DNA from: Syntrophales bacterium
Lineage (GTDB): Bacteria > Desulfobacterota > Syntrophia > Syntrophales > UBA2210
Direction of reading: 5' to 3'
DNA length: 64,000 nt
Assembly: GCA_963666365.2 (NCBI GenBank)
Contig: CAXXNF010000001.1
Span: forward strand, 1,472,442-1,536,441
How positions within the stretch are numbered: position 1 is the stretch's first letter; every line of letters begins with the position of its first letter. Of this stretch, positions 44,123-61,815 are shown piece by piece. The notes beneath the pieces were generated by a model. It did not search any database. It saw only the letters and a program-made list of their open reading frames with translations, and was not told the origin of the DNA. The position numbers and the translations under genes are program-made.

Positions 44123-44142
44123 AACTACAACCCTCGTGATTT

Positions 44143-44278: not shown

Positions 44279-44563
44279 TTTTGTTTCTTCTGCTTTTTTT
44301 CTTTTGTTCTCCCGCAGGGGCGCAGGGACCGCTGAGAAAACCTATGATCATTTTTTTTCTCATCCTCTGCGTCTCAGCGTCTCAGCGCGAGAATGTTTTT
44401 CTTTTTTTGATTTCTTGCTTTCCCCCATACCACACCTGGGCGGTCCTTCTCAACAGAAGACTTGCAGTACAGACGCCGGAGGGAGGCGAACTTCTTTACA
44501 GAACGTTTCACCTATAGTATAGGTAGGGGCGCTTGAAGACTGTCACACATTTCAGGAGCGCCG

Positions 44564-45673: not shown

Positions 45674-45674
45674 T

Positions 45675-45845
45675 CGTGAGGATCGTTAATAGCGTTAGCA
45701 ACGTTTAGATCGTTGGAACCGTTTATCTGGTCCCTTTGGCCAAACAGATTTAACCCGTGAAATGCGAAGCCTATTTCACAGGGGCCAAACAGACCAGATA
45801 GACCAAACGAACCAAATAGACCAGATAGGCCAAACAGACCAGAGA
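45675..45845. repeat. Composite tract: CGTT 9-bp satellite, family-G hairpin, CAGACCAAA satellite
   Basis: Fills the ribD-upxY spacer up to the start codon. Confidence 0.8.
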
Positions 45846-45852
45846 AACCAGC

Positions 45853-46356
45853 ATGTCATGGTATGCCGTATATACGAAAAGCCGCTATGAAGATAAAGTG
45901 TTGAGCGGCCTGCTGCAGCGATCGGTGGAGGTCTATCTCCCGAAGATCGAGGTGTGGAGCAAGAGGAAGGACAGAAAAAAACGAATCCGCATCCCCATGT
46001 TTGCGGGCTATCTATTTGTAGACCTTGAGGACCTTACCAACGAGAAGAAGCTCAGCGTGCTGACCACGCCCGGCGTGGTCAGAATGCTGGGAAAACCGAG
46101 AAGCAGCGAGCCCTTTCCCATCCCGGATGCCCAGATTGAAGCCATTCAGCGCCTCACCGCCTCCGGTGTGGAACTGCAATCATGGCTCTACCCGCGGGTG
46201 GGTGAACGGGCCAGGATCATAAACGGCCCCTTTACCGGTATCGAAGGGGTGGTGCTTCAGACGGATCTGAAAAAAAACATCTTTGTCGTTTCCATTGATC
46301 TTCTTCAACGTTCGGTGGCCATACAACTCGAAGGATTCCAGGTAGAGCGGATCTGA
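45853..46356 (+). CDS. UpxY/RfaH-like NusG-paralog transcription antiterminator
   Basis: WYAVYTKSRYE, WSKRKDRKK, PMFAGYLFV; KOW motif IINGPFTGIEG. Confidence 0.88.
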   Translation: MSWYAVYTKSRYEDKVLSGLLQRSVEVYLPKIEVWSKRKDRKKRIRIPMFAGYLFVDLEDLTNEKKLSVLTTPGVVRMLGKPRSSEPFPIPDAQIEAIQRLTASGVELQSWLYPRVGERARIINGPFTGIEGVVLQTDLKKNIFVVSIDLLQRSVAIQLEGFQVERI

Positions 46357-46398
46357 AGAGGGACACTTCCCTATTTAATGAAAAGCGTGAAGAACGTT

Positions 46399-46530
46399 GA
46401 GACCTGGCATAACTCTTCTCTTCGTCATTCCGGGCACGCGAAGCGCGACCCGGAATCCAGAAAGTGTTTAAAAACACTGGATGCCGGATCAAGTCCGGCA
46501 TGACGACATTGAAGCCAAGGGGGATTTTTC
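46399..46530 (+). mobile_element. Family-B miniature element, right end missing
   Basis: Closely matches 57918-58058 up to GGGATTTTTC, then gives way to the DUF559 cassette. Confidence 0.7.
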
Positions 46531-46539
46531 CTCCAGCAG

Positions 46540-46994
46540 CCTCCCCCTTTGAAAAAGGGGGATTGAGGGGGATTTCACCAGAGCGAGTTTTTACAAAATG
46601 GAAAAGTACGAGAAAGGACTCAAACAGAAAGCCAGGGCCTTAAGAAAAAACATGACCGACGCTGAACAGGTGTTGTGGAGAAAGATCAGAAATAAACAGA
46701 TAGAGGGGGTGCAATTTTATCGTCAAAAGCCCTTGCTATCGTTTATTGTTGATTTTTATAGCCCCAAGGCTCGACAGGTAATCGAGCTGGACGGTTCTCA
46801 ACACTTTGAGGCGTATCATCAAGAAAAGGACCGTTGGCGGGATGCCAAGCTGACTGCATTAGGACTACGGACTCTGCGTTTCGATGATCGACAGGTGCTT
46901 ACCGAAATCGATGCTGTAATGGAGGTAATTTGGCGAGAAGTGAACGATGCGTTGAATAAAATCCCCCCCGCCCCCCCTTTTTCAAAGGGGGGAG
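46540..46994. mobile_element. Family-C inverted arms enclosing a DUF559 nuclease gene
   Basis: CTCCCCCTTTGAAAAAGGGGGATTGAGGGGGATTT (46541-46575) and inverted AAATCCCCCCCGCCCCCCCTTTTTCAAAGGGGGGAG (46959-46994). Confidence 0.7.
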
Positions 46995-47014
46995 AGCATA
47001 GTTCTGCTTTGTAA
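46598..47014 (+). CDS. DUF559 / Vsr-like endonuclease
   Basis: ARALRKNMTDAEQVLW, FYRQKP, IVDFY, IELDGSQH, DRWRD..L...G...LRF. Confidence 0.9.
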   Translation: MEKYEKGLKQKARALRKNMTDAEQVLWRKIRNKQIEGVQFYRQKPLLSFIVDFYSPKARQVIELDGSQHFEAYHQEKDRWRDAKLTALGLRTLRFDDRQVLTEIDAVMEVIWREVNDALNKIPPAPPFSKGGEHSSAL

Positions 47015-47118
47015 AAGGAGTACATTAAATAGCTTCTCCCTTTATAAACAAAATAACTTCTTTTCAGCTTTTTTCACGCCTCTGTAGGAGGAAAAAAACA
47101 GCGTTACGGGTATTTCGA

Positions 47119-48006
47119 ATGACCATAGGCGATGTGCTTTCAGAAGCGGCGACACAATTTCACGCCGCAGGGATCCCTACGGCGCGGCTTGACGCCGAGG
47201 TGTTGCTGGCCTGCTGCCTCGGCTGTGAACGGGTGGAATTCATCAAGAGCCCCGCAAGGACCATTGAAGGGGAGGATCTGACCCGTTTCACGACAATGGT
47301 TGCGAGGCGGCTGGCAGGCGAGCCTGTGGCCTACATTACGGGGCGAAAGGCCTTCTGGAGTTTCACCCTGGAAGTAACCCCCGATGTCTTGATTCCCCGG
47401 CCCGATACGGAAGTGCTCGTCGAAGAGGCGCTGGCCATTTGTCGGAAAGAGGGATGGATAGGCCCCCGCATTGCAGATATTGGTACGGGCAGCGGGGCGA
47501 TCGCCCTGGCCCTTGCCTCTGAACTGCCTCAGGCTCACATCACGGCAACAGACGCCTCGCCGGCGGCACTGAAACTGGCCGAAAAAAACACGCGGCGCCT
47601 TGGGCTGCACAAGGCGATTTCATTTCATTGCGGTGACCTGCTGGCCCCCCTCGACGGTCTGTGGGACATGATTGTGTCCAATCCCCCCTATATTGCAGCG
47701 CGGGAATACGACGCCCTGCCCCGGGGCGTGCGCGACTATGAGCCGAAAGAAGCGCTTTGGGCGGGAGAGAACGGCCTGGAATTCTATGAAAAAATAATAT
47801 CTCAGTCCCCCATACACCTTAAAGAGGAGGGCTGGCTTGTACTGGAAATCGGTGCATCACAGGCAGATGCTGTCTGTGGCCTTCTGGAAAAGGCGGGATG
47901 CTACGATCGCATAGACATTCGGTGCGATTACGCAGGCCTTCCCCGGGTGGTGAAGGCAAAAAAGAGGGACACTTCCCTATTTATGGACGGCAACTGTTTA
48001 ATATAA
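47119..48006 (+). CDS. prmC: Release factor glutamine N5-methyltransferase
   Basis: Motifs RRLAGEPVAYI, LIPRPDTE, DIGTGSGAIA and SNPPY. Confidence 0.95.
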   Translation: MTIGDVLSEAATQFHAAGIPTARLDAEVLLACCLGCERVEFIKSPARTIEGEDLTRFTTMVARRLAGEPVAYITGRKAFWSFTLEVTPDVLIPRPDTEVLVEEALAICRKEGWIGPRIADIGTGSGAIALALASELPQAHITATDASPAALKLAEKNTRRLGLHKAISFHCGDLLAPLDGLWDMIVSNPPYIAAREYDALPRGVRDYEPKEALWAGENGLEFYEKIISQSPIHLKEEGWLVLEIGASQADAVCGLLEKAGCYDRIDIRCDYAGLPRVVKAKKRDTSLFMDGNCLI

Positions 48007-48057
48007 TTAATGTAATACGCTAATGGGATTGCAAAAAATAGGGAAGTGTCCCTCTTT
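47961..48057. mobile_element. Family-E ~97-bp miniature inverted-repeat element
   Basis: Terminal inverted repeats AAAGAGGGACACTTCCCTATTT / AAATAGGGAAGTGTCCCTCTTT. An inverted homolog lies at 49575-49671, with solo ends at 45651-45673 and 46356-46379. Confidence 0.85.
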
Positions 48058-49050
48058 AAAGGCGCGCGCCGCTTCTTCGTGTAAAAGGTGCTCCCGCCCT
48101 TTATATTTCGGGGAGAGGTGAAAAATGACCATCTGTTTCGCCCCGGCCTCCTTCGCAAGACAGCCGGCCTGATGGGCGGTAAGATGATATTTTTCGGCGG
48201 CGATGCGGGCATCTTCCTCCAGAAAGGACGCCTCGATAAAAAGAATATCCACGTTATGGGCAATAGAGAGGATTGCGTTGGCATTTTCCCTGCTGTAGCG
48301 GGCATCGGCGATGTAGCAGATCTTTTTTCCCGGCGACACTTTTACCAGCTCCTCTTTCAGCATCCCCAGCGACACATTGCACGACTGGAGCGCACCGCTT
48401 TTTGTCTGCTGCAGGACGGAAAGACGCCGATCCTCCGAATCATTCCGGCGGATGCCGTCTTTCAGTTCCTCGAGCCACGGACCGGGGACGAGTCCCCGCT
48501 CACTGAGGGCGTTTTTCATGATATTGATATGTTGCCGCTCTTCAATCACATAGGCCAGACTGGGAATCCGGTGGTCGAGAGCAGTTGCTTTTACGAGGAA
48601 ATCCGGTCGTTCCACAATGATATCATGGTACCCGCCGGGCGCAACCTGCCGGTTTTCCGCTTTAAAGCCTTTTCGGCAGTGGTAGTCTACCGAAATTGTT
48701 TCCTGCGCGCCGAGTTCCGTGACGGAAAGGAGAAACTCGTTTGTATAGTTCGTGACAAGATTCCAGGTGTATCCCGCAAGCTTTCCCTCTACGTTTTCGA
48801 TAAACCCCGGAGGGCCGAACAGCCTGATGTGGGCGTCTCTACCCAGGCAGATGCGCAGCAGATGGTCAAACCCTATAAAGTGATCCACGTGGGTATGGGA
48901 AAGAAAGGCATGGCTGATTCTCAGAATCTGACGGGGCGCGAGATTGTGAAGTTCTCCCATGTCGAAAAGGAGCGCTTCCCTTCGGTGCTTTAATTTTACA
49001 TATACCCCTGGATCGGAAAGCGGATCGTTGATAAGATGGGCAAGAAACAT
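48007..49050 (-). CDS. Ribonuclease Z-like metallo-beta-lactamase-fold nuclease
   Basis: Motifs SHTHVDHFIG, FGPPG, LDHRIP, YIAD, HLTA and FHLSPKY. Confidence 0.82.
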   Translation of the reverse strand: MFLAHLINDPLSDPGVYVKLKHRREALLFDMGELHNLAPRQILRISHAFLSHTHVDHFIGFDHLLRICLGRDAHIRLFGPPGFIENVEGKLAGYTWNLVTNYTNEFLLSVTELGAQETISVDYHCRKGFKAENRQVAPGGYHDIIVERPDFLVKATALDHRIPSLAYVIEERQHINIMKNALSERGLVPGPWLEELKDGIRRNDSEDRRLSVLQQTKSGALQSCNVSLGMLKEELVKVSPGKKICYIADARYSRENANAILSIAHNVDILFIEASFLEEDARIAAEKYHLTAHQAGCLAKEAGAKQMVIFHLSPKYKGREHLLHEEAARAFKEGHFPIFCNPISVLH

Positions 49051-49063
49051 GGGATCTCCTTGA

Positions 49064-49162
49064 GAGCGTTAGTATCGCTGAGATCGTTCATAGCGTTTGG
49101 AACTTTACTAACGCTCGCAACGATCTAAACGATACTAACGCAAATAACGCTTTCAACGCTAT
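49064..49162. repeat. 9-bp satellite, two arms in inverted orientation (AGCGTTAGT.. / ..AACGCT)
   Basis: CGTT-periodic arm followed by AACG-periodic arm, between divergent genes. Confidence 0.75.
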
Positions 49163-49164
49163 TA

Positions 49165-49638
49165 ATGGATTTTTATATGACTCTATTTACCGTTTCTCCG
49201 GAAAAAGAGAAAGCCCTTCTTGAAAAAATGAAAGAGCTGGGGGTGCGTGAGGAGGATCTGAGAGAGACCTTCATCCGGGCGTCCGGCTCGGGCGGTCAAA
49301 AAGTGAACAAAACGTCCTCCTGTGTTCAGCTTACCCATGTGCCCACGGGTCTTTCCGTCAAATGCCAGCGCGAGCGGTCTCAGGCTTTGAACCGTTTTTT
49401 TGCCCGCAGACTCCTCCTTGACCGCATAGAAAGAATTCAGAAGGGGATCGCATCGGAACAACAGAGGCGGATAGAGAAAGTGCGGCGGCAGAAACGGAAG
49501 CGGTCGAAGCGGGCCAAAGAAAAGGTCCTCGAACTCAAACATCGGCAATCGGAAAAGAAAGCACTCCGAAACATAAAGGGGGACACTTCCCTATTTTTTG
49601 TGATCCCATTGGTGTATTACATTAATTATATTATATAG
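49165..49638 (+). CDS. Small GGQ peptidyl-tRNA hydrolase (ArfB/RF-1-domain-like)
   Basis: RASGSGGQKVNKTSS and CQRERSQALNR, with a basic C-terminal tail and no codon-recognition domain. Confidence 0.85.
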   Translation: MDFYMTLFTVSPEKEKALLEKMKELGVREEDLRETFIRASGSGGQKVNKTSSCVQLTHVPTGLSVKCQRERSQALNRFFARRLLLDRIERIQKGIASEQQRRIEKVRRQKRKRSKRAKEKVLELKHRQSEKKALRNIKGDTSLFFVIPLVYYINYII

Positions 49639-49671
49639 TTGCAACTCAAAAATAGGGAAGTGTCCCTATTT
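49575..49671. mobile_element. Family-E miniature element, second copy
   Basis: Same terminal repeats; its interior is the reverse complement of the interior of 47961-48057. Confidence 0.85.
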
Positions 49672-49674
49672 AAA

Positions 49675-49716
49675 AAAAAGAGGGAAGGCTTCTGGGTATC
49701 TGCCTTCCCTCTTTTT
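49675..49716. terminator. Bidirectional intrinsic terminator
   Basis: AAAAAGAGGGAAGGC-loop-GCCTTCCCTCTTTTT between convergent genes. Confidence 0.85.
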
Positions 49717-49734
49717 GCTATGATGCCGTTTTTA

Positions 49735-50106
49735 CTAGCCGGCCAGGAGCTTGAACACCGGGTTGGCGTACAGGATAACCAGCGAAATAACCAACGCGTA
49801 GATCGCGATGGATTCCGTCATAGCCATACCAACCATCATGGTCAAAAGCACCTTGCCCTGGGCGTCAGGGTTTCTCCCGACGGCACTTGCCGCACCGCTT
49901 GTTGCCTGTCCCATTCCGCTTCCTGCGCCGATTGCCCCGAATCCGATCGCCATGCCGGCTGCAATTACGCTGCAACCAAGTACGATTGCCGCTGCATAAC
50001 CGCCACTTCCCGCTGCTTCATCCGCCGCCAGTGCAAAAGAACTCGAAACCATCAAAAGACCAACAACCATCAGACAGAATACAACACCCTTTAACCCTTT
50101 TCTCAT
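49735..50106 (-). CDS. atpE: F0F1 ATP synthase subunit c, stand-alone, with N-terminal signal-like extension
   Basis: GxGxGxG (GAGSGMG), RNPDA loop, MTESIAIYALV; RBS AAGGAGG. Confidence 0.92.
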   Translation of the reverse strand: MRKGLKGVVFCLMVVGLLMVSSSFALAADEAAGSGGYAAAIVLGCSVIAAGMAIGFGAIGAGSGMGQATSGAASAVGRNPDAQGKVLLTMMVGMAMTESIAIYALVISLVILYANPVFKLLAG

Positions 50107-50334
50107 GACTCTTTCCTCCTTTAGAAAGAACGATTTATTACGGCTCTTCGAGTCGACACCCCTCATACTTAAGGTTCCCTTTTATTGTTACTTAAGCACG
50201 CTCCGATATCGCGAAAGCCGCATCAACCTTGTACTTAAGGACAAGGGCAAAAGTCAAGAAATATTTTGACCTCCCCTGGAAAAAAATGTACAAGCCCCTG
50301 AAGGCGTTGAGATCGTTAATAACGTTTAAATCGT

Positions 50335-50859
50335 TTGACAGACCAGACAGACCAAATGGACCAGACAGACCAAATGGACCAGACAGACCAAACAAACCAG
50401 ACCGACCGCCGCATATCCCACATGCTTGAGGGCGATATCGGTACGGGTAGGCACCCCTTTCGATCTATCGCCGACACCTGCGGAATCAGCGAGGAGGAGG
50501 TGCTGGAGCGGATTCACCGCATGAAGGAAGCGGGGATTATCCGCCGGTTCGGCGCCGTGCTCCGGCACCGGAAGGCAGGTGTCACCGAAAATGCACTGGT
50601 CATGTGGGCGACGCCTCCCGGACAGTCCGAGCGTGTGGGCGCCCTGCTCGCCTCCCATGACGAGGTGACCCATTGTTACGAGCGCCGTCCGGCATTCGGT
50701 GGGAAATATACCCTTTTTTCCATGATTCAGTGTCGCAAGGGGACTGTTGAAGCCTTTGTGCGCACTCTGGCGCCGGCCCTGGGCATTGACGACTATCTGA
50801 TCCTGCATAGCATGGAAGAATTCAAAAAGGAAAGCATGGAGTATTTCGGCAATGAGTAG
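50335..50859 (+). CDS. ahbB: Siroheme decarboxylase beta subunit (AhbB/NirH, Lrp/AsnC-like)
   Basis: [34 protein letters not shown]; overlaps the hemL start. The N-terminus is encoded by a 9-bp satellite, so the start is uncertain. Confidence 0.8.
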
Positions 50860-52141
50860 AACCTCGAAGGAGTTGTGTGCCCAGGCCTCGGCGGTCATTC
50901 CCGGAGGAGTGAACAGTCCCGTGCGCGCCTTCGGCGCCGTCGGTCGTTCCCCCATATTTATCGACAGGGCGGCCGGATCGAAAATCTACGACATAGAGGG
51001 GAAGGAATATATCGATTACGTGGCGTCCTGGGGGCCCATGATCCTGGGACACGCCCATCCCCGGGTGGTTGAGGCGATTGCCGGGGCGGCGGCCCGCGGG
51101 ACAAGCTACGGCGCATCCACCGAGGGTGAAGTGACGATGGCGGAAATGATTGTGGATGCCTTCCCCTCCATCGATATGGTCCGCATGGTCAATTCCGGCA
51201 CCGAAGCGACCATGAGCGCCATCAGACTGGCCCGCGCCTATACCGGGCGGGAGCGTATCATTAAATTCGAGGGCTGCTATCACGGTCATGTCGATTCACT
51301 GCTTGTCAAGGCCGGTTCCGGTGTGGCCACGCTGGGCATTCCCGGCAGCCCCGGCGTACCCCCGGCGCTTGCGGAACTGACGATCACCGTGCCCTACAAC
51401 AACCTCGACGCGGTTAAAAAGACCATCGACACATCGGGCGACGACGTGGCCTGCCTGATTGTGGAGCCCGTTGCCGGCAATATGGGCGTGGTGCCCCCGG
51501 TTCCCGGCTTTCTCGAAGGGCTGCGGACACTGACGGCGGAAAAGGGCATTGTGCTTATCTTTGACGAGGTGATTACCGGATTCCGTCTTGCCTTCGGCGG
51601 CGTACAGACCCTGTACGGGATCGAACCGGATCTGACCTGTCTCGGCAAAATCATCGGGGGAGGGCTTCCCGTGGGCGCCTTCGGCGGCAGGCGGAAGATC
51701 ATGGAGATGCTGGCCCCCGCGGGTCCCGTCTACCAGGCGGGCACCCTTTCCGGAAACCCCCTGGCCATGGCGGCGGGCACGGCCACGCTGCGCATTCTTC
51801 GGGAAGATCGCGATATCTATACCCGCCTGGAGCGCACCACCGCCTCCCTGTGCGCGGCACTGGAAGATATTTTCACGCACGCGGGCATCCCCTTCTCAAT
51901 AAACCGCATGGGCTCCATGTGCACGCTCTTCTTCTGCCCGGAAAGGGTCACCGATTTCGCCTCGGCGCAGCGGGCGGACACGGCGCTCTTCGCCCGCTAT
52001 TTCGCGGCCATGATTGAGGAAGGCGTCTACATCGCCCCGTCGCAGTTCGAGGCGACCTTTGTGTCGGCGGCCCACAGTGACGAGGATATAGACAAGACGC
52101 TGGCCTGCGTAAAAAGGGCGTTGCAGAAGTTGAAAAGGTGA
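50852..52141 (+). CDS. hemL: Glutamate-1-semialdehyde 2,1-aminomutase
   Basis: Motifs [46 protein letters not shown] and PSQFE. Confidence 0.97.
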
Positions 52142-52145
52142 AGAG

Positions 52146-52276
52146 CTCCCTCTCCCTTGCGGGGAGAGGGTTGGGGTGAGGGCGATTAATAGTGCTATTA
52201 CAATCAGTTGCTTCCCCCTCCCCTTCATCCCCTCCCACCAGGGGAGGGGAAAAATGACTTTTTGCGAAACCGTCAA
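52146..52276. repeat. CTCCCTCTCCC/GGGGAGAGGG palindrome doublet followed by a family-D end
   Basis: Homologous in layout to 11848-11966. Confidence 0.7.
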
Positions 52277-52324
52277 AAAGTCAGAAAAGTTGAGAAAATA
52301 GGGAGGGTTGAAAGGCGCAAAGAC

Positions 52325-52449
52325 GAGATTGCCGCGCTCCCTCCGGTTGCTCGCAAAGACAGGCCTTGAGGCATTGGAGGAGCGCAGTGACGAAGCACTC
52401 TCTCCCCCCCGTTGTCTTTGCGAGGGAGCTTTGCGACCGAAGCAATCTC
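52325..52449. repeat. Family-F palindromes (GAGATTGCCGCGCTCCCT.CGGT.GCTCGCAAAGAC ... GAAGCAATCTC)
   Basis: Two more tandem copies at 62064-62249 and a degenerate piece at about 57851-57905. Confidence 0.8.
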
Positions 52450-52608
52450 ATTGGATATGGAATGTACCTCTTACCCTGTTGTGCGCCTTTGCGGGATACC
52501 ACATTTCAGTGATTGACATGAGTGCCCAAGTTAGGTAGAAACCAACATTCAACCATGTAATATGCTCGGGGTAGTATATCCTCTCTGAGCGGCTGTGATA
52601 TACGAAGC

Positions 52609-52984
52609 GAAACCTTTGCATACTTTCAAAATCCGTCATTCCGGGCGTGACCCGGAATCCAGGAAATGCATAAAGAACCGGATGCCCCCCGGACGTGATC
52701 CGGGATCTGACGGTATGTCGAAATGAATGCATGCATGAAGTGCCGCAAAGGTGTCCTCAACTCCTCGACGGGGGGATTCGCTCTTTTTTGTAATCCAGGA
52801 AGCGGAGCTGTATCAAAACAGACCAAACAGGAGACCTGGTTTGCATAATTTCTTTTTCCGTCATTCCGGGCTTGACCCGGAATCCAGAAAGTGTGTGAAC
52901 AAACTGGATACCTCCCGGACTTGATCCGGGACCTGCCGGTATGACGAAAGTGACGATTTTATGAGGTTCTGCAAAGCAGGTCTC
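52609..52984 (+). mobile_element. Two family-B miniature elements (52609-52755; 52831-52984)
   Basis: GAAACCTTTGCA...CGCAAAGGTGTC and GAGACCTGGTTTGCA...TGCAAAGCAGGTCTC ends around GTCATTCCGGG palindromes. Confidence 0.78.
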
Positions 52985-53094
52985 CCTATTTCACCGGAAC
53001 CAAACAGATGTACCCCGTGAAATGCGAAGCCTATTTCACCGGGGCCAAATAGACCAAATAGACCAAACAGACCAGAAGGACCAAACGGTGCACA

Positions 53095-54042
53095 ATGACA
53101 GAACATCAGGAATGCAACACGCAAAGAAGCTACGAAATGCCCGAAGAAGACGAAATCAATCTTCTCGATCTCTTCATCACCCTTCTGAAATATAAATGGA
53201 TGATATTTTTTATCGTCTTTTTTACCGGTCTGGCCGCGGTGATCATCACCCTGCAGATGACGCTGATCTTCCGTTCGGAAGCCACCATCGTGCCCACCAC
53301 CCAGGAAAAGGGGAGCGGCCTGGCCGCGCTGGGCGGCTTCGGCGCCATGATCGCCTCAGAGGCGGGAATCAGCGCGAGCGGCTCGCTGGAACAGTTCGAA
53401 GTGGTGCTCAAAAGCCGTGAACTGACGCACAAAATCGTGAAGGAGCACAACCTTCTGCCCATTCTCTTTGAAGACGGCTGGGATCCGGAAAAGAAGGTCT
53501 GGAAGGACGAGCCCCCCAAAACCGAGGACATTTACAATGCGGTGCAAGGCCCTTTGCAGTTTAATTCCGATAAGAAAAAAAATGTCATGACGATTTCCTT
53601 TCAATCAAAGGATCCGGAGATGGCGAAGCAGATGGTAGAGTATTTCATTGTGGGCCTAAGCGAGTTTCTGCGGCAGCAGACGCTGAAGGACGCCGAGGCG
53701 CAGCAGAGTCATTTGTACCAGCAGCTGTCGCAGACCACCGATCCGCTGCTTAAAAACAGGCTCTATGAATTGATCGCCAGGCAGATCGAGCAGGAGACGC
53801 TGGCAAAGGTCCAGAAATACTACAGCTTCAATATTATCGATCCGCCCTTTGTCCCGGAGCGGAAGTTCAAGCCGAAGCGGGCGCAGATCTGTGTGCTTTC
53901 CGTAGTGGTGGCCTTCTTCCTGGCCGTCTTTCTCGCCTTCTTCAGAGAGTACGTGACAAAACTGCGGGAGAATGAAGATCCCGAACGACTGGCCGCGCTA
54001 CGTAAATACATAAGCCTGCGTCCCGGTAAGAAGAAAGAATAA
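53095..54042 (+). CDS. wzz: Wzz/FepE-type polysaccharide chain-length determinant
   Basis: EDEINLLDLF, N-terminal TM, and IIDPPFVPERKFKPKR followed by a C-terminal TM. Confidence 0.85.
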   Translation: MTEHQECNTQRSYEMPEEDEINLLDLFITLLKYKWMIFFIVFFTGLAAVIITLQMTLIFRSEATIVPTTQEKGSGLAALGGFGAMIASEAGISASGSLEQFEVVLKSRELTHKIVKEHNLLPILFEDGWDPEKKVWKDEPPKTEDIYNAVQGPLQFNSDKKKNVMTISFQSKDPEMAKQMVEYFIVGLSEFLRQQTLKDAEAQQSHLYQQLSQTTDPLLKNRLYELIARQIEQETLAKVQKYYSFNIIDPPFVPERKFKPKRAQICVLSVVVAFFLAVFLAFFREYVTKLRENEDPERLAALRKYISLRPGKKKE

Positions 54043-54241
54043 AAAAACATCTCGCGCAGCGACGCCGAGAAAAAAAGAGAACAAAAAGAAAAAGCATCCC
54101 GCGCAGAGCCGCCGAGGCGCAGAGGAAGAAAAGAGAAAAATAAGGTTCATCCGGTTTTTGCGTACTTATTGGCTTTGAAAGGTTGGGGATAAGGAAACGA
54201 ATAAAACCTTTTGTGTTCCCGGGGACAGCGCCGTCATTCTG

Positions 54242-54370
54242 GAGACCTGCAGAACCTCATAAAATAATCAATTTCGTCATACCGGCGAAAGCCGGTATCC
54301 AGTTTTTTCACGCACGTTCTGGATTCCGGGTCAAGCTCGGAATGACAGAAAAGGGAATTATGCAGATCTC
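54242..54370 (-). mobile_element. Family-B miniature element, apparently nested in the left arm of the GIY-YIG cassette
   Basis: GAGACCTGCAG...TGCAGATCTC ends; reverse-complement homolog of 8200-8343; flanked by CCGTCATTCTG and TTTCCGGCGTATGCCGGAATCCAG. Confidence 0.72.
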
Positions 54371-54409
54371 TTTCCGGCGTATGCCGGAATCCAGAAGAGG
54401 CCGCGGTGT

Positions 54410-54700
54410 GTGGATAAGCAGCCTGCTGTATACATTTTAGCAAGCAAAAGAAATGGCACCCTGTATACAGGCGTCACATCAGATCTGCTGAAGCGGGTTT
54501 GGGAACACAAGAATGATCTGGTTGAGAGCTTTACAAGAAGGCATCATGTCCATTCCCTGGTATGGTACGAGCTTCACGAGACCATGGAATCGGCGATTCT
54601 GAGGGAGAAGAGAATAAAGGGATGGAAACGAGAGTGGAAGTTGCGATTGATTGAAAGTGCCAACCCCAGTTGGAAGGACTTATATCACAGCATTGTTTGA
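54410..54700 (+). CDS. Small GIY-YIG nuclease (YhbQ/UPF0213-like)
   Basis: AVYILAS, GTLYTGVTSDL.KRVWEH, LVWYE, AILREKRIKGWKREWK..LIE..NP.W.DL. Confidence 0.92.
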   Translation: MDKQPAVYILASKRNGTLYTGVTSDLLKRVWEHKNDLVESFTRRHHVHSLVWYELHETMESAILREKRIKGWKREWKLRLIESANPSWKDLYHSIV

Positions 54701-54884
54701 CTGGATTCCGGGTCGCGCTTCGCGTGCCCGGAATGACGAACAAGGAAGAGATGCTTCATAAAAAAAATTAAGTACGGATCAACCGGGTGAAAAAAAATAA
54801 TGAGGTCTTGTCAGCGTCCCTGCGCCCCTGCGGGAGGCAAAAAATAATTACCTTGAAAATTACCTTTATAAAAAAGGTGGAAGT

Positions 54885-57827
54885 GTGAACATGACATGTA
54901 AAAAAAGATCGTATGCACTGCAACTCGCAATAATGGCAGGTGTTCTTTTCATGCTTACGTGTACGTGCATACCCGGTCTGCCCGGTCTGTGGGCGCAAAA
55001 TTCGAGCGCATCAGCCGCGTCGTCTGCCCAGGTGTCCGGTGTGACCATGCTTCCGTCGGTCACGGGAATGACGCCGGATCAGGCCGCCGCGGCCCGGAAT
55101 CTGACCCCGGCCCAGAAGGGGGCGATAGCCCAGGAATTGGAAAAGACGGGCGGGAAGCTTACCCCGGGGGCTGTTGACGCCCTGAAAGGACGGCCGGAAT
55201 TTGAGGGACTCTCTCCCGAAGAGGTGGCAAAGGGCAAAGAACTGATCGAGCAGGCGGAGAAAAAACAGCCCGATCGCGCCGCCGACAGGGGGCCAAAACG
55301 GACAATTACCGATCTTCCCAAGGGAGAAACCCTCTTCGAACGGGCGCAGATGCTCGGTTCCTACCAGAATATCCCCCTCGATCTTCGGCCCTTCGGGTAC
55401 GACTTTTTCCGCGAGGCGGCGATCAAAGTCATCACGGACCGCAAGGACATCCCCGTTCCTCTGCAGTATGTCGTCGGCCCGGGAGACGAAGTGCGCATTG
55501 TCTTGTGGGGGAGGGTAAACGCTTCCTACACACTGACCGTCGACCGCGACGGTAAAATCGCTATTCCCGACATCGGACCTCTGAATGTGGCGGGGATGAC
55601 CTTCGAAGAAATGTCCGGACATCTGACCAGTCAGGCCCAGCAGATCACCGGCACCAACGTCGATATCACCATGGGCGCGCTCAGAACGATCCCGATTTTC
55701 GTCCTGGGCGATGTGCGCAGACCCGGCGCCTACACGATCGGCGCACTGGCGACCATCACCGACGCCCTGCTCCTTTCGGGCGGCCCTTCCGAGATAGGCA
55801 CCATGCGCACCATACAGCTGAAGCGCAGCGATACAATAATCAAGCAGTACGACCTGTACGACCTGCTCTTGAAAGGTGATAAATCTCAGGATATGACGCT
55901 GCAGGCCGGCGATATCGTATTCGTGCCCGTCATCGGCCCCTATGCGGCCATTGCGGGCAATGTAAAGCGGCCTGCCATCTATGAATTGAAGGACGACTAC
56001 ACCCTCGCCCACCTCTTCGACCTTGCCGGCGGGATCATCCCCACCGCCTACACCCAGCAGATACAGGTGGAGCGCACCATCAAGAACGAGAAGAAGATCG
56101 TCGTCGATATTGACGACAAGAATCTCAGCCGCGCCAAGGGGATATTGCTGCAGGACGGGGATATCGTCAAAGTGTTTCCCATTGTGGAGAAAGATGTCAA
56201 CGCCGTCTATCTGCAGGGCAACGTCAAGCGGGGCGGCAAGTACGCACTGACGCCGGGAATGCGCCTCAAGGACATTCTCAAGAGCGAGCAGGAACTGCTG
56301 CCGGACACCTACTTCGACTATGCCCTGATCAAGCGCGTGCAGCCGCCCGGGATGGAGACGACGCTGGTACCCTTCAGCCTCGAAAAGCTGCTCCTGCGCA
56401 ATGATCCAAAGAGCAATCTGCCGCTCGAGCCGCAGGACCAGATTTTTGTCTTCAGCAAGTGGTTCTTCAGGGACAAACCCTATTACGCCGTCAGCGGTGA
56501 GGTGCGGCAGGGCGGCCGATTCGATCTGGAGGAAAACACCCGCGTAAAGGATGCTATTCTTGCCGCCGGCAACGTGACCAAGGACGCCTTTCTGGAAAAG
56601 GCCGAATTGATTCGAGTCAATGAGAAAAAGGAATATTACACCATATATTTTAATGTGGCGGAGGCACTGGCGAATAATCCGCAAGAAAACCTGCTGGTGC
56701 ATGACCAGGACAGTATCATTATCCATTCTGTATGGGAGCAAGTGAACAAAGAAGAGGTCTATGTTGACGGTGATGTGAAAAATCCGGGCGCCTATTTGTT
56801 AACGCAGGGAATGACCGTGAAGGATCTTATCTTCAAAGCGGGCAATCTTCTCGATTCGGCGTTTGTAGGAGAAGCGGAAATAACCTCGCTGGTGGTCGAT
56901 AACGCGCAGGTTGCAAAAATGGAAAGAAAAACAATAGACCTGCAAAAAGCCCTGGCGGGAGATTCCGCCCATAACATCATCCTTATGCCCTATGATCGTC
57001 TGCAGGTAAAACGCATTCCCGATTGGCACGAGGCAAAATTTGCCAGCATTGAAGGCGAGGTAACCTTTCCGGGACGCTATTCCGTCAAAAAAGGCGAGCG
57101 GCTTTCCTCACTGATCGAGCGGGCCGGCGGCTACACCGACTTAGCCTATGCGCGAGGGGCCGTGTTTACGCGAGAAAGCGTCCGGGCGATGCAGCAGAAG
57201 AGTCTCACTGAAATGGTGGAACGTCTGGAGCGCGAACTGGTCAGCCAGAGTGCCGTGGAAATGTCAACGGCCGTGTCAAAAGAGGCCATAAGCGCCACAC
57301 AGGCGGAGCTGGAGCAGAAGCAGAAATTTCTTGCCTCTCTGAGAGAACTGAAGGCCACGGGCAGAATGACCGTCCGGATCGGGCATTTGCGCCTGTTGAA
57401 AGGGAGCGAATACGATATACTTCTCGAGGATGGCGACAGGTTAACGATTCCGCCCAGAAACGACGTGGTGACCGTGGTGGGATCGGTGATGACCCATGGC
57501 AGCTATATCTATTCCGAAGATTACGACTATGAGAACTACATCGACATGGCCGGGGGCTATACGAAATTCGCCGACAAAAAGAACGTGTTCATCGTAAAGG
57601 TCGACGGCAGTGCGAGGAAGGCCAGAGGCGACGTCAGCTGGAATCCCTTCAAGGAGCGGTGGGAGATGACCGCCTTCGGCGAGAAGATCAAGGAGATCGA
57701 GCCAGGGGACACTATCGTCGTGCCGGAGGAAATCGGCCGCATCGCCTGGCTGCGCGAGTTCAAGGACATCACCCAGGTCTTGATGCAGCTCGCCGTCACC
57801 GCCGGCGTTGTGTACAACATGTGGTAA
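54885..57827 (+). CDS. Polysaccharide export protein with multiple SLBB domains, paralog 1 (980 aa)
   Basis: Signal peptide; FGYDFF, YVVGPGDE and VDRDGKI Poly_export domain; repeated GxVxxPGxY...AGG modules; PGDTIVVP. Confidence 0.88.
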   Translation: MNMTCKKRSYALQLAIMAGVLFMLTCTCIPGLPGLWAQNSSASAASSAQVSGVTMLPSVTGMTPDQAAAARNLTPAQKGAIAQELEKTGGKLTPGAVDALKGRPEFEGLSPEEVAKGKELIEQAEKKQPDRAADRGPKRTITDLPKGETLFERAQMLGSYQNIPLDLRPFGYDFFREAAIKVITDRKDIPVPLQYVVGPGDEVRIVLWGRVNASYTLTVDRDGKIAIPDIGPLNVAGMTFEEMSGHLTSQAQQITGTNVDITMGALRTIPIFVLGDVRRPGAYTIGALATITDALLLSGGPSEIGTMRTIQLKRSDTIIKQYDLYDLLLKGDKSQDMTLQAGDIVFVPVIGPYAAIAGNVKRPAIYELKDDYTLAHLFDLAGGIIPTAYTQQIQVERTIKNEKKIVVDIDDKNLSRAKGILLQDGDIVKVFPIVEKDVNAVYLQGNVKRGGKYALTPGMRLKDILKSEQELLPDTYFDYALIKRVQPPGMETTLVPFSLEKLLLRNDPKSNLPLEPQDQIFVFSKWFFRDKPYYAVSGEVRQGGRFDLEENTRVKDAILAAGNVTKDAFLEKAELIRVNEKKEYYTIYFNVAEALANNPQENLLVHDQDSIIIHSVWEQVNKEEVYVDGDVKNPGAYLLTQGMTVKDLIFKAGNLLDSAFVGEAEITSLVVDNAQVAKMERKTIDLQKALAGDSAHNIILMPYDRLQVKRIPDWHEAKFASIEGEVTFPGRYSVKKGERLSSLIERAGGYTDLAYARGAVFTRESVRAMQQKSLTEMVERLERELVSQSAVEMSTAVSKEAISATQAELEQKQKFLASLRELKATGRMTVRIGHLRLLKGSEYDILLEDGDRLTIPPRNDVVTVVGSVMTHGSYIYSEDYDYENYIDMAGGYTKFADKKNVFIVKVDGSARKARGDVSWNPFKERWEMTAFGEKIKEIEPGDTIVVPEEIGRIAWLREFKDITQVLMQLAVTAGVVYNMW

Positions 57828-57917
57828 GAAAGTAGGGAAAAGTATGTCCTTACGAGGCGCGCAGCGGCGAACGACGAAGTACTCTCTCTCCCCGCTGTCG
57901 TTGCCAGAAGTGAAACT

Positions 57918-58058
57918 GAGAGCTTAGCATACCTCTTCTCTTTGTCATTCCGGGTACGCGGAGCGCGACCCGGAATCCAGGAAGTCTCTAAAATACTGGA
58001 TGCCGGATCAAGTCCGGCATGACGATATTGAAACCAAAGGGGATTTTTCAAAGCTCTC
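57918..58058 (+). mobile_element. Family-B miniature element
   Basis: GAGAGCTTAGCA...TCAAAGCTCTC ends; interior nearly identical to 46399-46530. Confidence 0.75.
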
Positions 58059-58094
58059 GGTCGCTCACAGAGACGGGGCTTTGAGTCATCAAAA

Positions 58095-58250
58095 TTGACG
58101 GACTCGTAAAAAGTACAAAATCAGGCGGCGGTTTAAAAAGGCCGAGATCAAGGCTCGTAAATCTCGAGGAATGATAAGTACTTACGGTACGCCGCAGTGA
58201 CGAGAGATGCAGCGTAAAGCAGAGATCGGACTTTTTACGAAGCCGTCGAA
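58095..58250. mobile_element. Family-D miniature element with a different interior
   Basis: TTGACGGACTCGTAAAAAGT ... GACTTTTTACGAAGCCGTCGAA. Confidence 0.65.
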
Positions 58251-58275
58251 ATGACTTCTATAAAAAGGTGGAAGC

Positions 58276-61200
58276 GTGAACATGATGTATAGAAAAGGGT
58301 GGCATGTAGTCCGTATTGTAATAATGGCAGGTATTCTTTCCATGGTTACATATCTCCCCGGCGCGTGGGCACAGAATACGGGAACATCCGCCGCGCCATC
58401 CGGGGTGACTGTGCTTCCGTCGGTGACGGGGATGACGCCGGATCAGGCGGCTGCGGCCCGGAATCTGACCCCGGCGCAGAGAGGGGCGATCGCGCAGGAA
58501 CTGGGGAAAACGGGCGGAAAGCTCACGCCCGAGGCGGTTGACGCCCTGAAGGGGAAGCCGGAATTTCAAGGCCTGTCGCCTGAAGAGGTGGCAAAAGGGA
58601 AAGAACTGATTGAACAGGCCGAGAAACAAAAGGCCGATACCGCCGCCGAGCAGATAAAGAAACCTGCCGAAGAGGAGAAGGCCGATGCCGCCGCGGCCGA
58701 GAAGGCCGAAAAACCTACTGAAGCGCAAAAGCGGACCATTACCGACCTCCCCAAGGGGGAGACGCTCTTCGAACGGGCACAGCTTATCGGTTCCTACCAG
58801 GATATCTCCCTCGATCTGCGACCCTTCGGCTACGACTTCTTCCGCGAGGCGGCGGTCAAGGTGATCACGGACTGGAAGGATATCCCCATTCCTCTGCAGT
58901 ACGTCGTCGGCCCCGGCGACGAGGTGCGGATCATGCTGTGGGGGAGGGTGAACGCCTCCTACAAGCTGACCGTCGACCGCGACGGCAAAATCGCCGTTCC
59001 CGACATTGGTCCCCTGAACGTTGCGGGCATGACCTTTGAGGAAATGACGGGCTATCTTACCAAACAGGCCCAGCAGATCACCGGCACCAACGTCGATATT
59101 ACCATGGGCGCGCTCAGGACGATCCCGATTTTCGTTCTCGGTGATGTGCGCAGACCCGGCGCCTACACGATCGGCGCACTGGCAACCATCACCGACGCCC
59201 TGCTCCTTTCGGGCGGCCCTTCCGAGATAGGCACTATGCGCACCATACAGCTGAAGCGCAACGATACAATAATCAAGCAGTACGACCTGTACGATCTGCT
59301 CTTGAAGGGTGATAAATCTCAGGATATGACGCTGCAGGCGGGTGATATCGTATTCGTGCCCGTCATCGGCCCCTATGCGGCCATTGCAGGCAATGTCAAA
59401 CGGCCTGCCATCTACGAGTTGAAGGATGATTATTCCCTGGCCCACCTCTTCGACCTTGCGGGCGGGATCATCCCCACCGCCTACACCCAGCAGATACAGG
59501 TGGAACGTACCATCAAAAACGAGAAGAAGATTGTCGTCGATATTGACGACAAGAACCTCAGCCGCGCCAAGGGGATTTTGCTGCAGGACGGAGATATCGT
59601 CAAAGTGTTTCCCATTGTGGAAAAAGATGTCAACGCCGTCTATCTGCAGGGCAATGTGAAGCGGGGCGGCAAGTACGCATTGACGCCGGGAATGCGCCTC
59701 AAGGACATTCTCAAGAGCGAGCAGGAACTGCTGCCGGACACCTACTTCGACTATGCCCTGATCAAGCGCGTGCAACCGCCCGGGATGGAGACGACGCTGG
59801 TGCCCTTCAGCCTTGAAAAGCTGCTCCTGCGCAATGATCCGAAGAGCAATCTGCAGCTCGAGCCGCAGGACCAGATCTTTATTTTCAGCAAGTGGTTCTT
59901 CAGGGACAAGCCCTATTACGCCGTCAGCGGTGAGGTGCGGCAGGGCGGCCGATTCGACCTGTCCGAAAACACCCGGGTGAAAGATGCCATTCTGACCGCC
60001 GGCGACCTGACGAAAGAAGCCTACCTGAAAAAGGGCGAGCTCATCCGCGTCGACAAAAACAAGGAGTTTCGAACGCTCTACTTCAACGTCGCCCGGGCCA
60101 TGGCAGGCGATCCCGCCGAGAATATCCTGCTGCAGGATGAGGACAGGATCATCATCCATTCGCTCTACGAAGAAAAATGGCGGGAAGAGGTGTCGATTGC
60201 CGGTGAAATCAAAGATCCGGGCACGTTTCTGCTGACGGAGAAGATGCGCATCAGCGACCTCTTTTTCAAGGCGGGGGGGCAGACGCGCGACACGCTGCTC
60301 GAGGAGGCGGAGCTGTACCGGACCGACTGGAAGACGAAAGAGGTGACCCTGGTCAAACTTGATCTTGGGAAAGCGTTGGCCGGCGATCGGACCCACAACA
60401 TCGCCTTGCAGGACCTGGATCGCCTTGTGGTGCATTCGACATGGGAAAAGGTATTTAAAAAGAGCGTGTCCGTCGACGGTGAAGTGCGCAAGCCCGGCAC
60501 CTACCAGTATGCCGACAATATGACGGTGCGGGATCTGATGTTTGCCGCGGGCGGCGAGACACGGGACACCTACTTCGAAGAGGCGGAGCTGTACCGGACC
60601 GACTGGCGGACAAAAAAGGTGACCCTCGTGAAACTGGACCTTGGGAAAGCGCTGGCCGGCGATCCAAAAAATAATATCGTGTTACAGGACCTGGACCATT
60701 TTATTGTGCACTCCATGTGGGAGCAGGAGTACAGAAAAATGGTCTTTATCGAAGGCCTGGTGCGGAATCCCGGCGAATACCGCTTTGCCGACAATATGAC
60801 CGTCCGCGATCTGATTTTTGCCGCCGGCAATGTTCTGGAATCGACGTCGCTGGAAGAGGCGGAGCTTTCCTCCCGGATCATCAACGAAGAGAACAAGGCG
60901 GAAGTCGTGCACAGGAACCTCGATCTGGGCAAGGCCCTGGCGGGAGATCCTGCCCACAATGTGACGCTTAAGCCCTACGACCGGCTCTTCGTCAAACAGA
61001 TTCCCAACTGGCGCGACGCGGAAAAGTACGCGACCATCGCCGGCGAGGTGGTCTATCCCGGGCGCTATGCGCTCGCGAAGGGGGAACGGCTTTCCTCGCT
61101 GATCGAGCGGGCCGGCGGTTACTCCGACCTGGCCTATACGCGGGGCGCCGTCTTTACCAGGGAAAGCGTGCGGGCCATGCAGCAGAAGAGCCTCACCGAG

Positions 61201-61815
61201 ATGGTGGAGCGGATGGAGCGTGAACTGGTCAGCCAGAGCTCTGTTGAACTGTCAACAGCGGCGTCGAAAGAGTCGATAAGCGCCACGCAGGCGGAGCTGG
61301 AACAGAAGCAGAAATTCCTTGTCTCACTGAGAGAACTGAAGGCCACGGGAAGAATGACCGTCAGAATCGGGCATCTGCGTCTGTTGAAGGGGAGCGAGTA
61401 CGACATCATGCTTGAAGACGGCGACAGCCTGACGATTCCGCCCAGAAACGACGTCGTGACCGTGGTGGGATCAGTGATGACCCACGGCAGCTATATCTAT
61501 TCAGACGAATACAGCTATGACAACTACATCGACATGGCCGGCGGCTATACGAAATTCGCCGACAAAAAGAACGTCTTTATCGTAAAGGTCGACGGCAGCG
61601 CGAAGAAGGCCCGAGGCGCCGTCAGCTGGAATCCCTTCAAGGAGCGGTGGGAGATGACCGCCTTCGGCGAGAAAATCAAGGAGATCGAACCGGGCGACAC
61701 CATCGTCGTGCCGGAAGAAATCGGCCGCATCGCCTGGCTGCGCGAGATCAAAGACGTCACCCAGGTCCTGATGCAGCTCGCCGTCACCGCCGGCGTCGTG
61801 TACAACATGTGGTAG
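58276..61815 (+). CDS. Polysaccharide export protein with multiple SLBB domains, paralog 2 (1179 aa)
   Basis: Long stretches nearly identical to paralog 1, plus two extra ~92-aa SLBB modules (EEAELYRTDW twice). Confidence 0.88.
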   Translation: MNMMYRKGWHVVRIVIMAGILSMVTYLPGAWAQNTGTSAAPSGVTVLPSVTGMTPDQAAAARNLTPAQRGAIAQELGKTGGKLTPEAVDALKGKPEFQGLSPEEVAKGKELIEQAEKQKADTAAEQIKKPAEEEKADAAAAEKAEKPTEAQKRTITDLPKGETLFERAQLIGSYQDISLDLRPFGYDFFREAAVKVITDWKDIPIPLQYVVGPGDEVRIMLWGRVNASYKLTVDRDGKIAVPDIGPLNVAGMTFEEMTGYLTKQAQQITGTNVDITMGALRTIPIFVLGDVRRPGAYTIGALATITDALLLSGGPSEIGTMRTIQLKRNDTIIKQYDLYDLLLKGDKSQDMTLQAGDIVFVPVIGPYAAIAGNVKRPAIYELKDDYSLAHLFDLAGGIIPTAYTQQIQVERTIKNEKKIVVDIDDKNLSRAKGILLQDGDIVKVFPIVEKDVNAVYLQGNVKRGGKYALTPGMRLKDILKSEQELLPDTYFDYALIKRVQPPGMETTLVPFSLEKLLLRNDPKSNLQLEPQDQIFIFSKWFFRDKPYYAVSGEVRQGGRFDLSENTRVKDAILTAGDLTKEAYLKKGELIRVDKNKEFRTLYFNVARAMAGDPAENILLQDEDRIIIHSLYEEKWREEVSIAGEIKDPGTFLLTEKMRISDLFFKAGGQTRDTLLEEAELYRTDWKTKEVTLVKLDLGKALAGDRTHNIALQDLDRLVVHSTWEKVFKKSVSVDGEVRKPGTYQYADNMTVRDLMFAAGGETRDTYFEEAELYRTDWRTKKVTLVKLDLGKALAGDPKNNIVLQDLDHFIVHSMWEQEYRKMVFIEGLVRNPGEYRFADNMTVRDLIFAAGNVLESTSLEEAELSSRIINEENKAEVVHRNLDLGKALAGDPAHNVTLKPYDRLFVKQIPNWRDAEKYATIAGEVVYPGRYALAKGERLSSLIERAGGYSDLAYTRGAVFTRESVRAMQQKSLTEMVERMERELVSQSSVELSTAASKESISATQAELEQKQKFLVSLRELKATGRMTVRIGHLRLLKGSEYDIMLEDGDSLTIPPRNDVVTVVGSVMTHGSYIYSDEYSYDNYIDMAGGYTKFADKKNVFIVKVDGSAKKARGAVSWNPFKERWEMTAFGEKIKEIEPGDTIVVPEEIGRIAWLREIKDVTQVLMQLAVTAGVVYNMW

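Follow-up and report, generated by a model that had tools for sequence, protein, structure and literature searches.

The stretch of DNA analysed here (the window) comprises 64,000 nucleotides from a Syntrophales bacterium of the UBA2210 lineage (assembly GCA_963666365.2, contig CAXXNF010000001.1, positions 1,472,442 to 1,536,441), and it contains, between a wzz-like and a wza-like gene, a small gene coding for a GIY-YIG nuclease. This gene lies between two inverted palindromic arms, the left one interrupted by a miniature inverted-repeat transposable element (MITE) whose ends are of the type found in insertion sequences (IS) of the IS5 family, and related arms recur across the genome as doublets enclosing no gene. 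The protein is likely to be a nuclease of the Ssn family encoded in a hairpin–gene–inverted hairpin cassette, and the doublets to be mostly cargo of IS5-type MITEs. The cassette consists of the following features, those resembling published Ssn-related motifs (SRMs) being called SRM-like.

54233-54239, plus strand: 5' stub of the left arm, GTCATTC, separated from the remainder of the arm by the MITE
54242-54370: 129-bp MITE with IS5-type ends (GAGACC-TGCA ... TGCA-GATCTC), within the left arm; it aligns with other copies
54276-54302 (plus) and 54319-54346 (minus): inverted hairpin pair inside the 129-bp MITE, a 27-nt and a 28-nt arm
54372-54394, plus strand: remainder of the left arm, TTCCGGCGTATGCCGGAATCCAG, with the hairpin TTCCGGCG-TAT-GCCGGAA followed by TCCAG (DNA fold -8.3 kcal/mol, z -5.3)
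54395-54400, plus strand: AAGAGG, a likely ribosome-binding site judging by its sequence, 9 nt upstream of the GTG start
54410-54700, plus strand: ssn-like gene for a single-domain GIY-YIG nuclease of 96 aa, with GTG start and TGA stop
54701-54737, minus strand: right arm, CTGGATTCCGGGTCGCGCTTCGCGTGCCCGGAATGAC, a 37-nt SRM-like hairpin (GTCATTCCGGGCACGCGAAGCGCGACCCGGAATCCAG on the minus strand; fold -13 kcal/mol, z -4.7)

The nuclease and its flanking arms

The 96-aa protein is a single-domain GIY-YIG nuclease in the range of roughly 90-100 aa, with PF01541 (GIY-YIG; residues 6-77, E 3.8e-15) as its sole Pfam domain. Residues Y8, Y19, G21, R29, H33, and E66 are intact in it and invariant in the family, N85 being nearly so, and the invariance of positions including Y8, Y19, R29, H33, and E66 was seen in an alignment of 15 homologs. 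Through an offset of two residues, Y8, Y19, and E66 appear to correspond to Y6, Y17, and E64 of SsnA from Neisseria meningitidis, which were mutated in the published work on that enzyme (PMC11893778). According to tblastn the gene is present in a single copy in the 4.0-Mb genome, where it is the sole small GIY-YIG gene; the Pfam GIY-YIG model, applied genome-wide, matched this gene, one segment within a 665-aa open frame and, below threshold, one further site. In a search of PDB sequences the best match was 1zg2 with an E of only 0.006, so that the protein is not near the UPF0213 branch, while a search of the protein against NCBIfam returned no model above its cut-off and a PADLOC search gave no match.

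The Ssn family has been described as GIY-YIG nucleases of about 94 aa that bind hairpins of the Neisseria Transformation Sequence (NTS) and SRM types, CGTCATTCC..GGAATCYRG (Chenal et al., Nat Commun 2025, PMC11893778). The NTS, CGTCATTCCCGCGMAVGCGGGAATCYRG, is the long form of the repeat dRS3 and accounts for about half of the dRS3 copies. A first-pass annotation of the window, made from the sequence, had pointed to a likeness between the arms and Neisseria dRS3, which agrees well with the finding that the sequence bound and cut by SsnA is this longer dRS3 form. SsnA (94 aa, cd10448) binds the hairpin only as single-stranded DNA (ssDNA), cuts one strand of it a few bases upstream, and is inactive on double-stranded DNA (dsDNA) and on the RNA form; the three bases 5' of the palindrome are the most important for cutting, and for binding it is the C immediately 3'. 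The same behaviour, on their own hairpins, is seen in homologs from three further species, and in N. meningitidis the enzyme lowers transformation by repeat-carrying DNA. At least one SRM flanks 71% of the ssnA homologs, with both sides flanked in 42% (all PMC11893778). The earlier annotation knew of no mechanistic characterisation of such a system and is out of date in this respect; since the partnership between nuclease and hairpin was published in 2025, it is no discovery of the present analysis. A literature search on Ssn, or on GIY-YIG with hairpins or single-stranded DNA, matched only this one report.

The arms of the present genome share a common design, namely GTC, a palindrome starting with ATNCC and ending with GGNAT, and then CCAG, and those near the gene keep the positions that are critical in the published system (GTC, ATTCC/GGAAT, and the following C; PMC11893778). 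Inverted SRM-like hairpins stand on both sides of the gene, the left one in interrupted form. The right arm begins at the base directly after the stop codon (54701) and is the exact reverse complement, over 37 nt, of the arm at 46424-46460, as the first reading had noticed; it is unmatched by the published SRM string, yet GTC, the ATTCC/GGAAT palindrome, and the C after it are all preserved. The only intact arm of the left type is found at C2:1476193-1476219 (27 nt), and it is preceded by the same 15-nt leader, cccggRgacagcgcc, as the left-arm stub. The left arm is interrupted by the 129-bp element and not merely truncated. The open reading frame and both arms agree with the placement of the gene, by the first annotation, between 54372-54394 and 54701. 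Its further claim that the gene occupies its own palindrome doublet needs qualifying: the flanking arms are there, but the left one is of a 27-nt type and the right one of the 37-nt type, and as no gene-less pair in the genome joins these two types, the gene is not strictly in a doublet of its own.

Compared with the published Ssn system, the locus has in common a single-domain GIY-YIG protein of about 95 aa, a gene flanked by inverted GTCAT / ATTCC..GGAAT hairpins followed by CYRG, hairpins in multiple genomic copies, and a pairing of hairpin variants with protein variants. It differs in that the published SRM search string does not cover its palindrome cores and loops (CCGGG..CCCGG, in arms 37 and 42 nt long), in that the hairpins mostly occur as convergent pairs inside IS5-type MITEs, and in that one arm of the cassette is disrupted. 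With the Neisseria dRS3 repeats and the neisserial intergenic mosaic elements (NIME) the arms have the ATTCC..GGAAT palindrome family in common, but they belong to another host phylum, have a different core sequence, and are packaged here in MITEs. Indirect support for membership in the Ssn family comes from the homolog at locus L118, which is 67% identical to the 96-aa protein and has flanks exactly fitting the published NTS consensus. Taken together, the sequence comparisons make membership of the 96-aa protein in the Ssn family very likely.

Gene-less doublets and IS5-type MITEs

The pattern GTCATNCC-N6-30-GGNATCCAG has 53 matches genome-wide against none for the same pattern reversed, used as a control, and 88 when one mismatch is allowed, about a dozen of the latter being visibly unrelated. 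At least seven arm sequence types can be distinguished, with lengths of 27, 28, 37, and 42 nt, and as ssDNA they fold to hairpins with z from -4.7 to -6.1 (-2.3 in one decayed arm). The published SRM string, which in this genome matches only the 27-nt types, was found 41 times in the genome against 14-25 times in five dinucleotide shuffles, and once in the window; by either measure the hairpins are multi-copy in the host. The set of 88 includes 31 convergent pairs, with the CCAG ends facing each other across gaps of 12-16 bp (exactly 16 in 21 of them), somewhat shorter than the spacers of about 15-20 bp first reported. Empty doublets had been listed at seven sites of the window, and six of these do hold convergent pairs (8222-8307, 44180-44249, 46424-46504, 52860-52945, 54276-54346, and 57944-58023), the one at about 52635 being degenerate. 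Apart from the pair inside the cassette, these are as follows.

8222-8307: gene-less doublet of a 28-nt arm, a 16-bp spacer, and a 42-nt arm, in a MITE of the same family as that at 52609-52755
44180-44249: gene-less doublet of a 28-nt arm, a 15-bp spacer, and a 27-nt arm, in a second element type with ends CGTAAAAAGTC / GACTTTTTAC
46424-46504: gene-less doublet of a 37-nt arm, a 16-bp spacer, and a 28-nt arm; the left arm is identical to the right arm of the gene
52609-52755: MITE with the doublet at about 52635, the second arm of which is decayed
52860-52945: gene-less doublet of a 28-nt arm, a 16-bp spacer, and a 42-nt arm, in a MITE of the same family
57918-58058: MITE with ends GAGAGCTTAGCA / GAGAGCTTTGAA and the doublet 57944-58023, between two paralogous wza-like genes

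An alignment of 27 elements anchored on the commonest arm revealed that the repeated unit exceeds the doublet. Its order is GAGACCTTTGCATAA, about 12 nt, an arm, a 16-bp spacer, the inverted arm, about 28 nt, and TGCAAAGGTCTC, the common ends of the aligned copies being GAGACCTTTGCA ... TGCAAAGGTCTC. The same 12-mer, in inverted pairs, bounds two longer elements, C2:1214978-1216389 (1412 bp) and C2:1216598-1218011 (1414 bp), which are 97% identical and flanked by 5-bp direct duplications (TCTAC, ATACT). Each encodes a 352-aa protein with the domains DUF772 (E 2.5e-23) and DDE_Tnp_1 (E 1.9e-15), a pair of domains known from IS5-family transposases. The terminal repeats GAGACCTTTG(C/A)ATAA and GAGA(G/C)CTTTGCA are common to the MITEs and to both 1.41-kb IS copies. 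These two elements are 208 bp apart, and the region C2:1.20-1.26 Mb also holds at least eight hairpin MITEs.

Counting supports the association. A terminal repeat (three mismatches or fewer) occurs within 62 nt outside the GTCAT end in 38 of 88 arms against 111 of 5000 random sites, and an IS5-like repeat stands on at least one side of 22 of the 31 doublets (on both sides in 9, on one side in 13). Among 17 MITE candidates, defined as short and having both ends and at least one arm, five show identical flanks of at least 4 nt, three of these being of exactly 5 nt, and the others have none or decayed ones; a 5-nt match would be expected by chance at about 1 in 1000 per site. The end-plus-arm pattern was found 18 times here and at most three times in each of 40 relatives, and this IS is present in seven of 41 genomes, including the present one. 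Because the terminal repeats and some 5-bp duplications match two resident IS5-family elements, the doublets probably move as MITEs. Most of the gene-less doublets of this genome are thus probably cargo of IS5-type MITEs, which the IS5-family DDE transposase may well mobilise in trans. The first annotation had proposed the small GIY-YIG nuclease as the partner that spreads or maintains the repeats; cognate pairing of protein and arms stands, whereas the spreading role is, for most doublets here, better assigned to the IS5-type transposase.

The elements resemble IS5-derived MITEs elsewhere in being short and noncoding, with terminal inverted repeats and, in some copies, 5-bp duplications that match a resident IS carrying DUF772 and DDE_Tnp_1. 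They are unlike them in that the interior is a pair of nuclease recognition hairpins and no remnant of a deleted IS, the resemblance to the IS being confined to about 15-25 nt at each end. A second and rarer type of hairpin element, represented by 44180-44249 and two others, has outer ends that differ from those of the IS5-like MITEs; at 44141-44290 these outer inverted ends are GGACTCGTAAAAAGTC / GACTTTTTAC, and similar ends occur beside two ssn homologs (loci L040 and L043). A GC-rich motif, CCCTGCGCCCCTGCGGGAG and its complement, is found next to two different hairpin elements, on their outer side (54806-54840 and about 44290-44320).

Homologs, insertion site, and alternative explanations

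At a cut-off of E <= 1e-5, a homolog of the nuclease was found in 16 of 41 related genomes (the present one included) but not in the same-genus genome. Nearly all of 19 homolog loci inspected in the related genomes have a GTCAT-hairpin upstream and an inverted copy downstream, and more distant protein lineages have other arm sequences of the same design. A scan with one genome per species yielded at least 598 confirmed relatives, the best 80 of which (61-77% identity) were analysed; they come from Deltaproteobacteria, Beta- and Gammaproteobacteria, Chloroflexi, Planctomycetes, Nitrospirae, Cyanobacteria, Acidobacteria, and others. An arm was scored where GTC was followed by a stem of 7 or more (no more than one mismatch), a loop, and C[CT]A; by this definition one lay within 80 nt of the gene in 71 of the 80 loci, against 61 of 2044 control intervals (288 bp each, from the same loci and at least 700 nt from the gene). 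Inverted arms flanked both sides in 44 loci against 2 of the 2044 controls, and nine loci had no arm. The enrichment of arms in the flanks of homologs, proposed as a check by the first annotation, is therefore strong. In two-sided loci the CCAG ends face the gene in 37 of the 80 and the GTCAT ends in seven; the reversed loci include L050, L056, L057, L059, L067, L075, and L078, and the predicted cut sites would then fall between arm and gene. In the flanks of four loci (L010, L021, L088, and L107), the 5' half-arm (GTCATTCC...) occurs in tandem partial copies adjoining a complete arm, which looks as if arms had repeatedly been cut and re-seeded at that end.

Two further checks proposed by the first annotation were arm–protein co-phylogeny and repeat number against gene presence. 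On a quick maximum-likelihood tree of 97 proteins, with arm class scored for the 80 that have a detectable arm, 34 changes of arm class were needed against 46.5 +/- 2.0 in shuffled data, none of 1000 shuffles reaching 34, and the two commonest classes changed eight times against 16.3 in shuffles. This result shows co-inheritance and not proven co-evolution, because related sequences share labels by descent. Across genomes, possession of a homolog goes with a median of 16 arms (15 relatives, counted by hand) and its absence with a median of 2 (25 relatives), and the same-genus genome, which has no gene, has one arm against 53 here. A family-profile search of ten gene-less relatives, however, found only distant members in four (E 2.7e-12 to 2.6e-6) and no small GIY-YIG in the other six, which nevertheless carry 26, 35, 94, 10, 9, and 22 arms; the genome with 22 is a single contig with a completeness rating of 99%. 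Repeat-flanked genes may be missing from fragmented assemblies, the related genomes are not independent, and in these data the co-occurrence of gene and arms across relatives is loose. A cognate pairing of the small GIY-YIG protein with the arms is supported.

The insertion site can be read from a related genome of the order, G030, in which the stop codon of the wzz-like gene overlaps the start of the wza-like gene (ATGA). In the window the two genes are separated by 842 nt containing the nuclease gene, its right arm, and the left arm with the MITE that interrupts it, and the wza-like gene of G030 is 60% and 54% identical over two stretches to that of the window (60% and 57% in another search). 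The sequences thus identify the cassette as an insertion in the wzz-wza gene junction. This order-level comparison shows that the spacer is derived, and it does not give the timing of the insertion. A search of the same-genus genome G001 with the window DNA 53095-57827 gave only two short matches, so that no orthologous site is comparable at the genus level and the usable one is that of G030; the genes neighbouring the cassette in the window are shared by none of 105 homolog loci. In this neighbourhood, a purine-rich stretch past the wzz-like stop (54047-54125) has two copies of a motif like CATCYCGCGCAG..CGCCGAG. The wza-like polysaccharide export gene (980 aa, 54885-57827) has a second copy directly downstream (58711-60279 and 60517-61812), two stretches 87% and 72% identical in one 1183-aa open frame, with a hairpin MITE between the genes. 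In G030 (locus L133, G030:C1:85105-89580) the wza-like match is split between two frames, some 400 nt from each other, and a repetitive stretch rich in Lys, Glu, and Asp lies between them; the wzz-like gene likewise matches in two frames.

The best surviving alternative, which we regard as unlikely, is that the GIY-YIG nuclease itself copies or moves the hairpins and the cassette, the gene-less doublets being non-autonomous derivatives. Sequences of this kind are familiar from repetitive extragenic palindromic (REP) systems, in which inverted hairpin doublets (REPINs) accompany a gene encoding an HUH/Y1 transposase of the IS200/IS605-like kind (RAYT), the enzyme thought to play that part for REPINs. 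REP-associated studies by Nunvar (2010) and Ton-Hoang (2012) are reportedly among those cited in the Ssn work. The present doublets resemble REPINs and bacterial interspersed mosaic elements (BIMEs) in being inverted hairpin pairs that bear a short, conserved tag at the 5' end (here 31 pairs, convergent and 12-16 bp apart), in the single-copy gene flanked by the same hairpins, and in the cognate pairing of repeat and protein; they are unlike them in that the protein is a GIY-YIG enzyme and no HUH/Y1 transposase. An actual RAYT was rejected as an explanation: the nearest of the 16 Y1_Tnp matches in the genome lies 4547 bp from any arm, and no RAYT or IS200-type gene with the same arms, a finding that would have spoken against the first annotation, was thus seen. 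Four of these Y1_Tnp (IS200/IS605-type) matches cluster within 9 kb at C2:1171347-1180471. A mobile role of the nuclease is suggested by the resemblance of the cassette to an IS. Chenal et al. likened NTS-ssnA-NTS to IS, to IS200/IS605 transposases, and to REP/BIME, and put forward domestication with repeat expansion, the same hypothesis, in their Discussion (PMC11893778). It is also suggested by the wide taxonomic range of the close homologs, by the patchy occurrence of the gene among relatives and its never being seen beside the same neighbouring genes, by its presence in two or three copies in some genomes, by the arm class that follows the protein tree, and by the higher arm counts of genomes with a homolog. 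Several results speak against it. Most doublets have ends, and some have target duplications, that match a DDE-type IS; the six arm-bearing relatives with no small GIY-YIG hold 9-94 arms; and the gene is present once, between arms of two types for which there is no matching empty doublet. The published enzyme cuts one ssDNA strand, with no joining activity reported (PMC11893778), and the co-occurrence and tree counts overstate the link, as gene and repeats are shared by descent.

Improbable by comparison is a selfish homing-type endonuclease gene that cuts empty hairpin doublets and is copied into them by repair. GIY-YIG is a classic homing endonuclease fold, I-TevI and the Seg proteins being free-standing examples, and in the present case the GIY-YIG core is likewise carried by a small, horizontally mobile gene which occupies the position of a doublet spacer, as in 37 of the 80 loci, between arms that could give short homology for repair. 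The 96-aa protein, however, is a bare catalytic domain with no DNA-binding extension of the kind that gives such endonucleases a long dsDNA target, its gene is bordered by inverted hairpins, seven of the 80 loci have the arms reversed, and the 31 empty doublets are unfilled here, with none combining the two arm types of the gene. The assayed Ssn relatives, moreover, cut ssDNA only and leave dsDNA uncut (PMC11893778). Least credible of all is that the arms are mere regulatory or structural hairpins (terminators or mRNA stabilisers) beside a housekeeping nuclease gene: stable hairpins do immediately precede the ribosome-binding site and follow the stop codon, but arm sequence, beyond structure, is conserved across phyla, the arms are multi-copy away from the gene, the published enzyme is inactive on the RNA form (PMC11893778), and no Rfam family matched in 44000-58500, where a search at E <= 1 gave just two chance-level eukaryotic matches.

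Proposed function of the cassette and significance

Under the Ssn cassette explanation favoured here, the protein would be a site-specific endonuclease for single-stranded DNA, of the Ssn type, and the arms are variants of the recognition hairpin published as NTS/SRM. If it behaves like the four enzymes that Chenal et al. assayed, the protein would bind the hairpins in DNA made single-stranded during uptake, conjugation, replication, or repair, and its expected cut would lie a few bases 5' of GTC and be confined to that strand. Such cutting would fragment or mark ssDNA carrying the repeats. The gene-less doublets would have another origin, as mostly inverted hairpin pairs inside MITEs of 130-165 bp that were probably amplified in trans by the IS5-family DDE transposase and not by the GIY-YIG protein; one of these MITEs has entered the left arm of the cassette, parting the GTC needed for cutting from its hairpin.

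Several points weigh against this explanation. Membership in the Ssn family rests on indirect links (the 67% identity to L118 and its NTS-fitting flanks), activity in the published work has been measured only for members from Neisseria and Wolbachia (PMC11893778), and the right arm of the gene together with most local arms lies outside the published SRM definition. As for the MITEs, 12 of the 17 candidates have no clean duplication, the one in the left arm of the cassette (54242-54370) has no exact target duplication, and nine of the 31 doublets have no IS5-like end at three mismatches or fewer. Four arm-rich relatives (G038 with 70 arms, G040 with 53, G019 with 55, and G025 with 94) do not have this MITE form, so that their arms must have spread in some other way.

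A bolder proposal, which we consider doubtful, is that the hairpin-ssn-hairpin cassette is an autonomous mobile element that travels through ssDNA, with the GIY-YIG nuclease making the cuts. If true, this would be a class of transposon with no HUH, DDE, or serine/tyrosine enzyme, and the cassette would seed recognition hairpins in new genomes, where other elements, here an IS5-type MITE, would capture and amplify them. A spreading role of the nuclease is at this point a hypothesis.

What is new at this locus is modest, and consists of variant hairpins outside the published search string, of MITE-borne doublets, and of a cassette arm damaged by a MITE. The words MITE and doublet are absent from the main text of PMC11893778, the supplements of which may list this lineage or further hairpin variants. 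The hairpins of the family are more varied than the published string allows, and string-based counts are probably too low in such lineages. The recognition hairpins can also be amplified at second hand, in MITEs apparently moved by an unrelated DDE transposase, which is relevant to how such repeats become numerous and makes it less compelling to assume that they need the nuclease for their spread. Finally, the MITE-damaged arm makes the cassette a natural test of the importance of the flanking hairpins for the gene.

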